From a phage, in NCBI GenBank assembly GCA_009015555.1, contig GCA_009015555.1_3613.1: a stretch of 64,000 nucleotides of DNA, one strand, 5' to 3'. This document shows, piece by piece, positions 3,518 to 55,895 of the stretch (the first letter of the stretch is position 1; every line of letters begins with the position of its first letter). Under the pieces are notes generated by a model. The model did not search any database. It was not told the origin of the DNA and saw nothing but the letters and a program-made list of their open reading frames with translations. A program made the position numbers and the translations under genes.

Positions 3518-6500
3518 GTGTCATCCAATACTGATATCATTGCCCTGTTGAGCAGCGATGCTGACAAGGCAGTTGACCAGATCATCGAAGACTCCAAACG
3601 TCTTCACATCGTGGTCAACGGGACGGGCACCGAGCAGGCTGTTGCAGAGGATGGGAGCTTGCTCCCGTCTGTTCGCAAAGCGCTGATCGACAACCTGTAT
3701 TTCAAAACCCCACCTCTTCCCTGGAGAAACGGTGGGTCTGTCAACGAGTTCAACCAGCTTTACTCCTTCACCGACGTAAGCGGGAACACCACTTGGTGGT
3801 ATGCGCCCGGAGCTACGGTATCAAACCCGGTTGTGATGCGTGACAGCCCGATCAATGACGGCAAGTTCAAGGTTTTCTTGGACAAAACCAACATCGCCGA
3901 TATCTATGCCCCTCTGAACTCTCCGAACTTCGTCGGTAACCCCCGTGTGCCTACCCCGGCCCCTGGCGACAACAGCCAAACCGTCCCGACAACCGGGTGG
4001 GTTCAGTCAGAGATGCAGGACCTGGAAGACCAGATCATTGCCTCTATGAAGGGTGATTTCGAAAACATCACCGTCCGTAACGATGCCGTTCTCAAAGACA
4101 CGTATATCAGCGGTGAGTTCATTGTCACCAGTGATAAGTTGTCCGCTGCCAGCGCCGAAGCAACCTTCCGTCGTATTCGTGTGGTCGGCACCGCAGACAA
4201 TACTGAGATCGCTTTTGAGCAGAACACCGCACCTCCAGCGGGGGCGAGCACAAAGACTAACATCAAGCCGTACACGATGTCAACAGGCATCTTGACGATT
4301 GACCAGTTGAAAGGAAAATCTGCCCAGATTGGTGATGTTGCTGTTGCCACGGACTCCCTGAATGTCGATGGGTACATGCGTGGGGATTACCTGCATCTGG
4401 AAGGTAACAACCGAAACAGCACAACCCGCCCTCAGTTGATCGTTGATGGTATTGCAGAGATCAATACGCTGCGGGTGACTGGAACCATCGAGGGTGTAAA
4501 AGCTGATGTTGATGGCTTGGATATTCATCCTCGTAGTGTTATCATCGACGAAGGTTTGACGGTTGGCAAAGATACCTCCCTGACAGGAAAGCTGACTGTC
4601 GGCGGTACAACCAAGGTGAATAACCTGGAGGTTACTGGAACCCTGTCTGGTGTTGCTATCAGTGTTGACGGTAAAGACATCAAGCCCCGCTCTGTTAACA
4701 CCGGGAACTTGGTTGCTACTGGCAACGTGCAGATCAGTGGGACGACCACTGCAACCGGGAAGATCACAACTCAAGATCTTGAAGTGCTTGGCACACTGAC
4801 AGCTAACCTCGACCTGTCCGGGTCGGATCTGAGTGTTGATAATATCAACGTTGCAGAAACCGCGACAATAAAGGATTTGGTGGTTACCGGAAAAACAACC
4901 GGGGTCAAAGGTGACGTTGATGGAACCTTGATCAAGCCTTCTTCTGTTCAGGCAACGGGCCTTGTGTCAGCAGGTTCATTGTCTACCAATGCAAATGCCT
5001 CTATCGGGGGTAACCTGACGGTGACTGGAGAGTTCCGTCCCGCCAGCATGGAAACAGGTGCAGTTGAGGCAGATAGTCTGGTTGTTAATGGTAACATTTC
5101 CCAGACGACAGGAACAACCTCTGTAGTCAACCTGGTTGTCACAGGAACGACAACTGGCGTAACAGCCGATGTCAATGGTGACGACATTTTGCCTCGCTCC
5201 GTGACTACTACTGCGGGGGTTAAAGTCGGAACCACCCTCGACGTAACTGGAAAGACTACCCTCGGAGATGTTGATTTCACTGGGGTTGTTACCGGGCTTG
5301 AACTTGATCTTTCTCAAAAGAACGTGACAGTTAAGTCAATTGCTGCTGTAGATCCTTCTGCATTTGGGGATGTGACGACAGATAATCTGACCAACAGCGA
5401 GAAGATCATCACTCAAGACATCCAAGTTCTGGGTGATATTCTGGATGCTGCGGGGAATCCTGTCAACACCTTTGATGTTACAGGCAAAGATATTCTGCCA
5501 AACAGTGTTCAATCTGCGACGTTTATTCGCGGAAAAACTCTGGACATCAGTGACGGTTCCACCCTCCGTGGCCCTGTCGAGTTCCGTAACGGGCTGACAG
5601 TAACTCTTGGAGACATCATGTCGCCCCAAGGGAAGGCAACGTTCAACGATGTACAGGTCAATGGTGCATTGACGGACGCTAACGGCAACGTCATCGGCTC
5701 CGTTGAAAGCATCAAGGGCAAGGACATTGAACCACGCTCCGTTGTGGCTACCGTGTCTGTACAGGCCCCTCGTCTCCAATCAACTGGGGATATTTTGGGC
5801 CAGAGCGCGACAATCACCAATAACGTCTCTGCGGGGACCTTGGGTGTTTCCGGGTTGACAAACCTGGCAGAAACTCGTGTGAATGCGAAGCTAACAGGGC
5901 AATCCACAGAGTTCGAAACTCTGCTCCTGAAGCGCGTTGCTGGTCAAGATACACCTCGCTTGGTTGTGCAGGGGGATTCAGATCTCCAGGGGGACCTGAA
6001 CGTCTCGGGGACCATTACCGGGATTGTTGACCTGACGGCTCAAGATATCCGTATGAACAGCCTTGTGCTCGCCGAGGATCTTTCTGCAAGGAATATTACA
6101 GGATCAGGCACGGTTCAGGGCGCTAATGGAATTTTCGGCCAGTCTTCCCAGCCCACCACCCAGTACGGTTTGCAGTCTCTTTCCAGCGCTAAGGTAGATA
6201 AAAACCTCGATGTTGGAGGAAACTTGCGGGTAACTGGGGCCATTACCGGAAGTATGGACTTCACAGGGAAGGATATTACCCCACGGAGTGTCGCGGCGTC
6301 AGCCGGAATCGGGGCCGTGGATATCACGGCATCCGGCACGACAACGACGAAGGACCTTGTGGTCACCGGGACGACAAGTTTTGCGGGAGACAGCGTTTTC
6401 AATGCAGGCCAGGTTAAGTCCAAGTTGTTCACCGTTGACATTGGTACTGATATCACTTCAGGATCGGGGTCTTGGATTCCAGACGGGCTTCAGTCCGTTT

Positions 6501-36183: not shown

Positions 36184-36372
36184 TTAATCGTGAGCCAAAC
36201 AAGCAGTGATTACAGTTGCCAAGAGGAACATCAAGGCTCCCCACCCCATCAAATACGGGACCTGGGATGAGAACTGTGCCATCATCTCAGGGAAAAAGAA
36301 CTGTGCGCCCCAGCGGGCCGGGAATATCCAAACCAGCATGAATGTAATGAACAGAATGATAAGATTTCTCAT
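36184..36372 (-). CDS. small membrane protein (two TM)
   Basis: 62 aa, two hydrophobic helices; immediately downstream of the wall hydrolase. Confidence 0.4.
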   Translation of the reverse strand: MRNLIILFITFMLVWIFPARWGAQFFFPEMMAQFSSQVPYLMGWGALMFLLATVITACLAHD

Positions 36373-36902
36373 GTCGCCTTTTCCTCTTTTGGTTTATAAA
36401 ACACATGGTAGCCGATAGTGGCTGTTTTCGTAAAGAACTTTCTCCAGTATGGCTTGACCTTCTTCGTGTGGAAGTGAGTCGCACCATGTGTTGGGTCCAG
36501 CTTGTTGTACAATACCTCATTATTCCGGATCTTGTAAAGGAATCTCGCAATATCTTGTGCGACCATCCAAGACTCCCGATCCCTGACTGCATAGCCGTTT
36601 CTTGCCATTGTCCAGGAAAATTGTGCAGATTGATACACAACCTTCCTGACTGACCCGGGATACCCGTCGTGCTTTAGCCTGTTCAGAGTAACAAATCCAA
36701 CCGCCATCTGTCCACTGATATTTTCCCCACGCGACTCGAAATAAATATTGCAGGCCAGTGCGTTGACCGACGAGTCATTGTTTTTGCACACATGAACAAC
36801 CGGGGCGAGCTTTTTCTTCGGTGCGTTATCTTTTGCCAAAGCAGATACTGGGGCGAAAGATAAAGCGCTGGCTGCGAATAGTGCAGCGATGCTCTTTTTC
36901 AT
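36369..36902 (-). CDS. secreted cell-wall hydrolase (SleB/CwlJ Hydrolase_2 family)
   Basis: Signal peptide MKKSIAALFAASALSFAPVSALA; NIYFESRGE ... GQMAVGFVTLNR ... YQSAQFSW conserved block. Confidence 0.75.
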   Translation of the reverse strand: MKKSIAALFAASALSFAPVSALAKDNAPKKKLAPVVHVCKNNDSSVNALACNIYFESRGENISGQMAVGFVTLNRLKHDGYPGSVRKVVYQSAQFSWTMARNGYAVRDRESWMVAQDIARFLYKIRNNEVLYNKLDPTHGATHFHTKKVKPYWRKFFTKTATIGYHVFYKPKEEKAT

Positions 36903-36951: not shown

Positions 36952-37332
36952 TCAAGCCTTTTTGGAGGCTTGAGCGAGAACTCCCTTCTTAACATCTTCC
37001 CAAAGAGAATTGAGGAAAGGGTCGTTGGTGATCACGTCGGCATACCAAGGGCCGTAGATACGGTACACGGAATCGACGGTGATCGCGTACAAATGCCCAG
37101 AATGGACGGCAAGGCCAGTCACGTAGCCAGTACGCACTTGGGTCCCATCCTTACCTGTCTTCCGGCGCTTCGCCTCATTGAACTCGATATAACCTGTCAA
37201 TGTGACAATCTTCTCCGGGACCTGAAGATCCGGGAGTTTTTCGTGGCTAAGGACCTGATTCCCAGATTTACATCCCTCCAGGCACAGATTTCCGCCGTAC
37301 TTCTTCCCGTACTTACGGGCAAACTCAGCCAT
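36952..37332 (-). CDS. hypothetical protein
   Basis: Start at internal ATG (MAEFARK). Confidence 0.45.
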   Translation of the reverse strand: MAEFARKYGKKYGGNLCLEGCKSGNQVLSHEKLPDLQVPEKIVTLTGYIEFNEAKRRKTGKDGTQVRTGYVTGLAVHSGHLYAITVDSVYRIYGPWYADVITNDPFLNSLWEDVKKGVLAQASKKA

Positions 37333-37855
37333 TTTGATCGTGGACAATTTCACTCTCCTTCAGAACATAAATGGTCACATCGAAGTCTCTCAGGCGACCT
37401 TCAATCATCCGAGATATGATACCCCAATCGCCACCTGCGAGTCCAGCCCCTATTTTTGGTAGCCCGATACGAAGGTCTTGGGTACTCATATCCAGAGTAC
37501 GACACTTGGCATGGAGAGATACCGCCATTGCAGACAGGGCCGAACGCAATGCCCAGTAATCGAGGTCCATCTTACCCTCTCTGCGCCCGGTGAAGGTGTA
37601 TTGACCGTACAGATTGTAAACCAGTAAACCATTTTTGCAGAAGGCCGACGACAAAGTTCCCAGTTTAGCCCGATCACCACGGGTGGTCATTTGGTCTGCC
37701 GTCCACGCTTCCGGAAAAGCTGACGCAATCTTTGGGGCAATACCAGACTTCATGGTATTCATGCAGTTACAGCAGTGGGCTATCACGTTTACCTCTCCAG
37801 CCTGCGCCGCAGAGATCAGATCGCCCACACGGTATGTCATTTTACCACAAGGCAT
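37325..37855 (-). CDS. macro-domain protein (ADP-ribose binding / ADP-ribosyl hydrolase-like)
   Basis: VNVIAHCCNCMNTMKSGIAPKIA resembles the macro vvNAAN..l.gGgGva.aI block; later GLPKIGAGLAGG resembles fPaIstGiyG. Start chosen at MPCGK. Confidence 0.65.
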   Translation of the reverse strand: MPCGKMTYRVGDLISAAQAGEVNVIAHCCNCMNTMKSGIAPKIASAFPEAWTADQMTTRGDRAKLGTLSSAFCKNGLLVYNLYGQYTFTGRREGKMDLDYWALRSALSAMAVSLHAKCRTLDMSTQDLRIGLPKIGAGLAGGDWGIISRMIEGRLRDFDVTIYVLKESEIVHDQNG

Positions 37856-37856
37856 A

Positions 37857-38069
37857 TTAAAGTTCACCCCGCTTCGCCTTCTGGCACATCTGGAGAACGT
37901 CATAGCAAGACTGCTTGACGATCCACGGCTCGCCACGGTACAGGGTAATCAGGGTTCCCTTGCGGTCTTTCCCTTCTACTTCGGTCACCTGCGGGTGAAA
38001 CTCCCGGATATTTGCAACATCGAGGCAGATTGGTTCTTCAGACGCTAGTTGGTTCAGGTATACGAACAT
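37857..38069 (-). CDS. hypothetical protein
   Basis: 70-aa ORF. Confidence 0.4.
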   Translation of the reverse strand: MFVYLNQLASEEPICLDVANIREFHPQVTEVEGKDRKGTLITLYRGEPWIVKQSCYDVLQMCQKAKRGEL

Positions 38070-38077
38070 AAACCCTC

Positions 38078-38344
38078 CTACAGGTATTGATTTTCAAGCC
38101 ACTGCGCCGCCTCATCAGGGGACTTGCAGTCTCGCTTTTCGTTGATGGTGAACCAGCCGTCAACACAATGACACGCCCAGTCCTCTTCATCCTCTTCCTC
38201 AGCACGTTCTTGAACCTCAACGTGCCAAGTGCCGTCCCAGTTCTGGTCGATAATTACCTGAACCTCATTGTGGAGTTCTTTTTCCACACGGTCAGCAACT
38301 TCATTGAACTGATCCATAATATCAATTTCATTTTCCACTTTCAA
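38078..38344 (-). CDS. hypothetical acidic protein
   Basis: 88-aa ORF; acidic stretch EEEDEEDW. Confidence 0.45.
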   Translation of the reverse strand: MKVENEIDIMDQFNEVADRVEKELHNEVQVIIDQNWDGTWHVEVQERAEEEDEEDWACHCVDGWFTINEKRDCKSPDEAAQWLENQYL

Positions 38345-55769: not shown

Positions 55770-55895
55770 ATCGAAATGAGAATTTTTATCATTCACGTTA
55801 GGCCCGAGGCGAAATGAGAATCGTTCTCATTTGCAAATTGAAATGATAATTATTCGCATTTACGTAGTTGAATGAGAATCATTCTCATCTCCAGA
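55770..55895. repeat. four palindromic repeats GAAATGAGAAT-n-ATTCTCATTT
   Basis: Four copies, two of them perfect palindromes (AAATGAGAA-TCG-TTCTCATTT; ATGAGAAT-C-ATTCTCAT). Confidence 0.75.

Follow-up and report, generated by a model that had tools for sequence, protein, structure and literature searches.

In phage T4, a transposon screen on DarTG2 yielded the macrodomain gene tk.4 as its sole hit; a clean knockout sensitises T4 to this system, and the gene was named adfM; the de-ADP-ribosylation by Tk.4 was inferred and its biochemistry was not measured (bioRxiv 10.1101/2025.11.20.689424). In Vibrio phage Gary, Adpp (KNV71_gp137) is encoded between Adps and Namat, converts ADP-ribose-1''-phosphate (ADPR-1''-phosphate) to ADP-ribose in vitro, and is needed by the extended NARP1 pathway of NAD+ reconstitution to overcome the RES-domain defence aRES (bioRxiv 10.64898/2026.01.28.702374). 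Removal of DarT2 marks from DNA, proposed for T4 Tk.4, has been biochemically shown for SCO6735 (PMC9411070) and for gp104 of phage PhiKZ (PMC13309987). SCO6735 frees single-stranded DNA (ssDNA) of thymidine-linked ADP-ribose and rescues E. coli from DarT; its Asn27 and Gln85 are required, and the N27S and Q85A exchanges abolish or nearly abolish activity (PMC9411070). Here we examine a macro-domain gene in a stretch of phage DNA of 64,000 nucleotides (NCBI GenBank assembly GCA_009015555.1, contig GCA_009015555.1_3613.1), referred to as the window; its product is referred to as the query.

37325..37855, minus strand: macro-domain gene, 176 amino acids (aa) plus stop (open reading frame and sequence; orthologue of CR3_gp089)

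The window derives from a Certrevirus (Vequintavirinae), a lytic myovirus, and the 1.2-kb stretch around the macro gene shows 99.5% identity to Cronobacter phage CR3 and 99.3% to Pectobacterium phage vB_PcaM_P7_Pc. By its motifs and similarity, the gene is a further member of the established Tk.4(AdfM)/Adpp phage macro family. The function that we tentatively favour is that of a stand-alone, catalytically competent counter-defence macrodomain, which would act on ADPR-1''-phosphate and supply the Adpp step in trans, and which may have AdfM activity too.

The macro domain named in the initial annotation was borne out by the PHROG match, the searches against the PDB with the single sequence and with a family profile, and the AlphaFold and Foldseek results, the single-sequence Pfam match being weak. 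The protein matched phrog_335 with an E-value of 1e-59, and phmmer against the PDB retrieved BT1257 (3e-8), SCO6735 (2e-7) and the M. tuberculosis DarG macrodomain (8e-5), as well as Poa1p and TARG1. When a profile built from 130 homologues was searched against the PDB, these matches rose to 6e-25 for BT1257, 4e-22 for SCO6735, 1e-16 for TARG1, 1e-13 for Poa1p and 3e-12 for DarG; fifteen of the sixteen matches at E<=0.01 are ALC1/TARG1-like macrodomains, the sixteenth being TTHA0132 (0.0027). The AlphaFold model (pLDDT 94.9, pTM 0.90) and its Foldseek matches display the three-layer alpha/beta/alpha fold with an ADP-ribose cleft that defines the macro superfamily, the best of these matches, all with probability 1.00, being TARG1, BT1257, Poa1p and the DarG macrodomain; viral macros were also matched. 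Asked for its subtype, the profile and the predicted structure place the protein in the ALC1/TARG1-like class and not among the MacroD or PARG types. Against Pfam PF01661 (Macro), the single sequence scored 15.8 bits (E=0.013), under the gathering threshold of 22 bits. Because several homologues do exceed that threshold and the family profile matches solved macrodomains at 1e-25 to 1e-12, the low score is, as judged from these comparisons, a matter of model sensitivity and not of a missing domain.

Three motifs make up the predicted active site:

37736..37777, minus strand: loop-1 motif H27-C-C-N30-C-M-N-T-M-K36-S-G38-I-A40 (translation)
37598..37615, minus strand: motif N81-L-Y83-G-Q85-Y (translation, alignments)
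37424..37459, minus strand: glycine-rich diphosphate-binding loop P133-K-I-G136-A-G138-L-A140-G-G-D-W144 (translation, alignment to TARG1, SCO6735 and BT1257)

Q85 aligns with the catalytic Lys84 of TARG1, Lys80 of DarG (Taq) and the essential Gln85 of SCO6735, and A140 takes the place of the TARG1 catalytic Asp125, so that in the alignments the Lys84/Asp125 dyad of TARG1 is absent, with Q85 and A140 in its stead. In loop 1, N30 corresponds to N27 of SCO6735, C28 to V25 and K36 to K34 (HMMER alignment and PMC9411070), while Q85, G136 and G138 map to Q85, G126 and G128. With N30, Q85 and the loop PKIGAGLAGGDW, and with no TARG1/DarG lysine, the site is of the SCO6735 or Gln type. The catalytic residues looked for following the initial annotation were thus found, but those of a glutamine-type and not of a TARG1/DarG lysine-type site. 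As to the DNA-contacting lysines of SCO6735, K34 aligns with K36, whereas K89 aligns with T89, in a loop that carries R91, R92 and K95. Across the 130 homologues A40, D54, N81, Y83, Q85 and G136 are invariant, and H27, N30, C31, G38, P48, T57, K64, L65, G66, Y100, P133, G138, G141, G142 and W144 are conserved in at least 90%.

On sequence grounds the active site is intact, and we infer that the protein would be catalytic. Some macrodomains merely bind ADP-ribose. That binding-only members exist is also stated in a survey (PMC9503650), and the query might be such a non-catalytic ADP-ribose reader or sponge; nevertheless, every residue on which the closest characterised enzyme depends for catalysis is conserved, several of them invariantly, and both characterised family members are enzymatic or inferred to be so. 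A pure binding role is therefore considered highly improbable.

The family to which the gene belongs was found in 2,929 of 50,697 phage records by tblastn (~6%), and 5,181 cluster representatives (50% identity) were retrieved at E<=0.001. All phrog_335 family motifs are present in the query, namely H-x-x-N-C, D-x-x-T...K-L-G, N-x-Y-[GTS]-Q and P-x-[IL]-G-x-G-x-[AG]-G-G-D-W. Compared to Gary Adpp, the query shows 38.5% identity (95 bits, BLASTP 1.2e-28 in a small database); the corresponding motifs of Gary Adpp, taken from the sequence in Table S1 of the paper, read AHQCNCF..MGRGIAP, AD..T..GD.SKLG, NVYGQY and PLIGCGLAGGDW. Compared to Tk.4 of a T4-like phage (ime09), it shows 36.6% identity (89 bits, BLASTP 5.6e-27 in a small database), and tblastn to T4-like tk.4 gave 5e-19 in the whole phage collection.

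A search of the reference genome identified a pathway in which an Adpp activity could be used. In CR3, the adjoining genes gp256 (annotated as ribose-phosphate pyrophosphokinase) and gp257 (annotated as nicotinamide phosphoribosyltransferase) occupy 139550-142282 on the plus strand. Of the structures matched by gp257, those of Namat (9W5X/9W5W) gave 3e-124 and canonical Nampt entries ~1e-45 to 1e-55; gp256 is Prs-like. By these similarities the two are the Adps/Namat (NARP1) pair. The NARP1 locus of CR3 holds no macro, and the genome has a single gene of this macro family, which is encoded on the minus strand, at 61.7 kb; Adps/Namat occupy the plus strand at 139.5-142.3 kb, ~78 kb away. Namat-like genes were found in 1,098 phage records, including most of the Gram-negative lineages with this macro. 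No T-even phage was present among 60 sampled rows of Namat matches, therefore the role of Tk.4 in T-even phages cannot be NAD+ salvage. On the host side, aRES homologues have been listed in Pectobacterium genomes (bioRxiv 10.64898/2026.01.28.702374).

The relatives of the query point in the same direction. In a neighbour-joining tree (200 bootstraps), it clusters with Mydovirus and Phapecoctavirus macros (78% bootstrap), in a clade that adjoins, without support, a Pakpunavirus/Otagovirus clade (88%) and stands apart from the Tk.4 clade, in which Tk.4 joins a Vequintavirus macro (86%). Outside its own clade, the query is closest to the macros of Pakpunavirus and Otagovirus (45-47% identity), which are listed as NARP1-associated (Table S1, bioRxiv 10.64898/2026.01.28.702374); one of them, in phage B55, was observed next to Adps/Namat. 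A divergently transcribed Adps/Namat pair is found 3.4 kb away from the Mydovirus macro, which is 50% identical to the query, and the Phapecoctavirus macro, like that of CR3, belongs to a block that runs towards the replication genes.

Two side observations were made on these macros. An RNA-ligase-macro fusion apparent in Mydovirus was rejected: the annotated frame contains 16 in-frame stops and is an artefact, and the true macro open reading frame is separate: in Klebsiella phage vB_Kpn_K23PH08C2, a coding sequence annotated as 'RNA ligase and tail fiber protein attachment catalyst' (L010:3051-4109) covers the macro region, and the actual reading frames are the macro at L010:3495-3989 and a separate RNA ligase at 4327-5418. 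The macros of NARP1 operons are themselves of two sequence types, which form separate clades with 100% bootstrap (Vibrio phage F88 compared to Table S1 of 10.64898/2026.01.28.702374). The Gary type, with N-V-Y-G-Q-Y and GCGLAGGDW, is the only one assayed biochemically; the second type (F88 L007:5007-5453, RYC and 1.063.O) has N-L-H-A-Q and GCDRAGG[SA]W and is without D54, K64, Y83 and G138, which are invariant elsewhere.

The proposed role would operate as follows. Enzymes of this family bind ADP-ribose and hydrolyse the substituent on its C1'' carbon, and the phage would deploy its macro enzyme against host systems that consume NAD+. Cleavage of NAD+ by aRES (RES domain) yields ADPR-1''-phosphate, which the NAD+ reconstitution pathway of the phage cannot use; the macro enzyme would take off the phosphate, and the resulting ADP-ribose would then be rebuilt into NAD+ by Adps and Namat, encoded outside the window (gp256/gp257 in CR3). 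The same active site may also strip DarT2-type ADP-ribose from thymidines of phage ssDNA, as proposed for T4 Tk.4/AdfM. That a single Gln-type site in fact serves both ends, ADPR-1''-phosphate against aRES with NARP1 in trans and thymidine-linked ADP-ribose against DarTG2, is considered rather unlikely; such a promiscuous site would be chemically plausible, because both reactions cleave a substituent on the C1'' of ADP-ribose. The slight lean to an Adpp step in trans is given because the closest relatives outside the clade adjoin NARP1, and because of the Mydovirus context, the CR3 NARP1 without a macro of its own, and the aRES homologues listed in Pectobacterium.

Several points weigh against an Adpp step in trans, some of which argue for an AdfM role only, in which the enzyme would remove host DarT2 ADP-ribose from the thymidines (TNTC motifs) of phage ssDNA and restore replication and packaging. 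This role is possible and close behind the Adpp role, the two being not mutually exclusive. T4-like Tk.4 is practically as similar to the query as Adpp, with all family motifs in common (HxCNC, D..T..KLG, NLY[GT]QY, GxGxAGGDW), and scores of 95 and 89 bits cannot, from sequence alone, decide between the two roles; the substrate assignment for Certrevirus macros would be one drawn from homologues. In an Adpp operon as defined in the aRES paper, the macro lies at most two genes from Adps and Namat, an arrangement not found in CR3, where the macro stands among replication genes and away from NARP1. NARP1 itself falls outside the 64-kb window, its presence being inferred from CR3 (99.5% identical over the 1.2 kb compared), and the deep nodes of the tree have less than 50% bootstrap. 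SCO6735, also with a Gln-type site, cleaves thymidine-linked ADP-ribose from DNA (PMC9411070), which argues that this type of site can act on DNA, and the only PADLOC and NCBIfam matches of the query are to DarG: in PADLOC, a defence-system library, DarG was matched at 1.2e-6 over its macro part (2-144 of the 329 profile positions), and in NCBIfam DarG scored 24 bits against a cut-off of 250. The T4 screen and knockout cited above favour an AdfM role as well, as does a metagenomic member of the family, P0224, in which a NADAR domain, the guanine-ADP-ribose DNA hydrolase of DarTG1/AdfN, is fused to a GQ-type macro; such a protein would combine guanine- and thymine-directed de-ADP-ribosylation. 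A second metagenomic protein, P0231, carries an AAA_33 kinase-like domain together with the macro and mirrors the flanks of NARP1 in Pakpunavirus and Thalassavirus, where AAA ATPase and RNA ligase genes are found.

On the other hand, it is the NARP1-adjacent macros with which the query groups, apart from the Tk.4 clade, in which the motif reads 'NLYTQ' and a loop is shorter; the biochemical activity of Tk.4 itself has only been inferred (bioRxiv 10.1101/2025.11.20.689424); and a CR3-type genome encodes NARP1, which would give an Adpp activity a clear use. PhiKZ AdfM (gp104), a lysine-type, DarG-like macro, was rejected as a close relative, there being no significant similarity to the query (BLASTP E 0.6). 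Attempts to find a feature that discriminates AdfM from Adpp were unsuccessful: the isoelectric point fails, both validated AdfMs being acidic, while residue 28 (Q/G/C), residue 84 (G/T/S) and loop length vary among near homologues with no clean match to gene context and were left unused; the phiAbaA1 macro, for instance, is NARP1-adjacent, yet has T84. The reversal of ADP-ribosylation suggested in the initial annotation therefore stands in part. It is favoured by T4 Tk.4/AdfM, of the same family and motifs, whose loss sensitises to DarTG2, but a rival role that the annotation had missed, that of an ADPR-1''-phosphate phosphatase feeding NARP1 against aRES, would be equally or more likely.

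The same annotation had also suggested that the enzyme destroys ADP-ribose-based signals of the Thoeris type. The Thoeris signals are all linked via the C1'' of ADP-ribose, the type of bond that macrodomains cleave. In such a role, 1''-2'/1''-3' cyclic ADP-ribose (cADPR) or His-ADPR would be destroyed or sequestered and effector activation blocked, which would be in line with this C1'' linkage, with a survey arguing that phage macros chiefly target soluble ADP-ribose derivatives (PMC9503650), and with the binding of His-ADPR by the Thoeris II effector ThsA via a macro domain. However, the literature search found no member of this macro family reported to act on Thoeris signals, the reported phage cADPR-cleaving enzyme is an unrelated RyR-domain glycosidase, the sponges (Tad proteins) are unrelated too, and both characterised family members have other substrates. 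The suggestion was consequently left without support, and signal destruction is regarded as very improbable.

Only marginally better placed, and still improbable, is a role in reversing ADP-ribosylation of protein or RNA (CmdT-modified mRNA, glutamate-linked protein, or marks set by a phage transferase), or in deacetylating sirtuin-derived O-acetyl-ADP-ribose. SCO6735 and TARG1 also act on protein-linked ADP-ribose (PMC9411070), several homologues bear the JGI name 'O-acetyl-ADP-ribose deacetylase', and a Sir2 gene lies near the Mydovirus macro. The JGI names are, however, automatic annotations and not tests; SCO6735 is inactive on 2'-OH RNA ADP-ribose, the paper being inconsistent on phosphate-linked ADP-ribose; no ADP-ribosyltransferase, sirtuin or NADAR is annotated in CR3, and the neighbouring genes are without such a domain. 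A tblastn search with the NADAR domain gave no match in CR3 or the window.

The surroundings of the macro gene were compared with CR3 by the conversion of window position = CR3 position - 24,384, and the following features were recorded:

36369-36902, minus strand: SleB-type cell-wall hydrolase in the replication block, two genes downstream of the macro (PF07486, 2.6e-22; N-terminus hydrophobic and signal-like)
36952..37332, minus strand: downstream gene, 126 aa, unknown function, phrog_12555 (sequence, CR3 annotation)
37857..38069, minus strand: upstream gene, 70 aa, unknown function, phrog_12235 (open reading frame list, sequence, CR3 annotation, PHROGs)
38316..38344, minus strand: candidate sigma-70-like promoter, TTGAAA-17-TATTAT with extended -10 TG (consensus match only)

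The stop codon of the macro reading frame is the TGA at 37327-37325 (minus strand), and the program list of open reading frames runs it out to a GTG at 37936. The ATG at 37855 yields the 176 aa and is the annotated start of the orthologue CR3_gp089 (531 bp, identical extent), which is annotated as 'putative phosphatase'; a single base separates it from the stop of the upstream gene, and a GGGGTG lies ~9 nucleotides 5' of it. This start was chosen over an internal in-frame ATG at 37840, which was rejected because close relatives retain the M-[PNS]-[CR]-G-K leader, and many of them have I or L as residue 6.

The macro gene sits within a long minus-strand run that contains a helicase, a primase/helicase and the DNA polymerase, in agreement with the leftward block described in the initial annotation; the small neighbours of unknown function noted there likewise proved to be genus-restricted PHROGs of unknown function with no Pfam match. 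The ATG of the downstream gene overlaps the macro stop codon (ATGGCTGA), therefore the two are probably translationally coupled, as far as this overlap indicates; searches of PHROGs, Pfam, PADLOC and NCBIfam yielded no function for the 126-aa product. A toxin-antitoxin-like pair with a partner transferase or toxin was considered and rejected, since the 8 neighbouring open reading frames (PADLOC, NCBIfam, PHROGs, Pfam) are genus-restricted unknowns and the SleB hydrolase. A SleB homologue is likewise found downstream of the macro in Phapecoctavirus nieznany, and CR3 annotates a second endolysin (gp210) elsewhere in its genome. The candidate promoter lies 5' of four tightly packed genes, gp091-gp090-macro-gp088, and could drive them; the promoter/terminator scan of the region returned 10 promoter-like sites compared to 5.9 +/- 2.6 in shuffles, a difference that is not significant. 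An Rfam scan of the whole window matched no family. Finally, a 29-nucleotide tandem repeat (2.7 copies, 76% matches) occurs at 55811-55888, with a palindrome in its unit (AATGAGAATCATTCTCATT), and by the window-CR3 offset it falls between CR3 gp127 and gp128, in a gap of ~1 kb that is free of genes; an operator, an iteron or a small-RNA locus are conceivable.

Taken alone, the gene adds little, as about 6% of the phage genomes sequenced carry its family, of which two members have had counter-defence roles assigned. The published names AdfM (anti-DarTG2) and Adpp (anti-aRES via NARP1) nevertheless refer to a single sequence family with common active-site motifs, and Certreviruses, which have NARP1 plus one unlinked macro copy, thereby offer a clean system for asking whether one enzyme does two jobs. 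If the dual function were true, the unlinked macros of myoviruses with NARP1 (Certrevirus, Phapecoctavirus, Felixounavirus and Vequintavirus) would already complete an 'extended' NARP1-AP pathway, the 15% obtained from operon adjacency would fall far short of its true frequency, and the names AdfM and Adpp would denote one and the same enzyme family. The answer would tell whether the extended NAD+ reconstitution pathway is undercounted when operon adjacency is the measure, and it would bear on host-range prediction against Enterobacterales that carry DarTG2 or aRES.

Compared to known macrodomains, human TARG1/OARD1 and yeast Poa1p are top structural matches of the query, and Poa1p, itself an ADPR-1''-phosphate phosphatase, shares H-x-C-N-C with it. 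They are, however, only ~20-27% identical, have eukaryotic housekeeping roles, and K84/D125 of TARG1 are replaced by Q85/A140 in the query. The DarG macrodomain (PDB 5M3I, 5M31) and the AdfM of PhiKZ, gp104, share the ALC1/TARG1-like fold class with the query and each undo the ADP-ribosylation of thymidine by DarT2; gp104 is likewise an orphan phage copy (PMC13309987). Unlike the query, both have lysine-type (T-K motif) sites, and DarG further possesses a DarT-binding domain at its C-terminus, with a darT gene next to its own, whereas the query is a macro domain only, 176 aa long, with a Gln at the lysine position and no ADP-ribosyltransferase (ART) domain among its neighbours, features that do not fit a DarG antitoxin.

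SCO6735 (PDB 5E3B) and Bacteroides BT1257 (2FG1/2AFC) are the closest solved structures by sequence, with a Gln-type site and without the K84/D125 of TARG1. They are cellular proteins of 28-29% identity to the query, in which 'ND' follows the His instead of the 'NC' of the phage proteins; both are without the phage-family invariants D54, T57 and K64, and K89 of SCO6735 is not conserved in the query. T4 Tk.4/AdfM resembles the query in its family motifs, in the Gln at the 'catalytic lysine' position, and as an orphan macro without toxin partner in a lytic myovirus, but in the Tk.4 clade, which includes the Vequintavirus macro, Thr stands ahead of the Gln (NLYTQ) and the following loop is 4-6 residues shorter. 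Gary Adpp differs from the query in having Q instead of C at residue 28 and in being encoded in an operon with Adps/Namat, compared to a distance of ~78 kb from NARP1, on the opposite strand, for the Certrevirus gene. The two nonetheless share HxCNC, D..T..KLG, N-x-Y-G-Q-Y and GxGLAGGDW, both are stand-alone proteins of about 160-176 aa, and the phage in each case encodes Adps and Namat.

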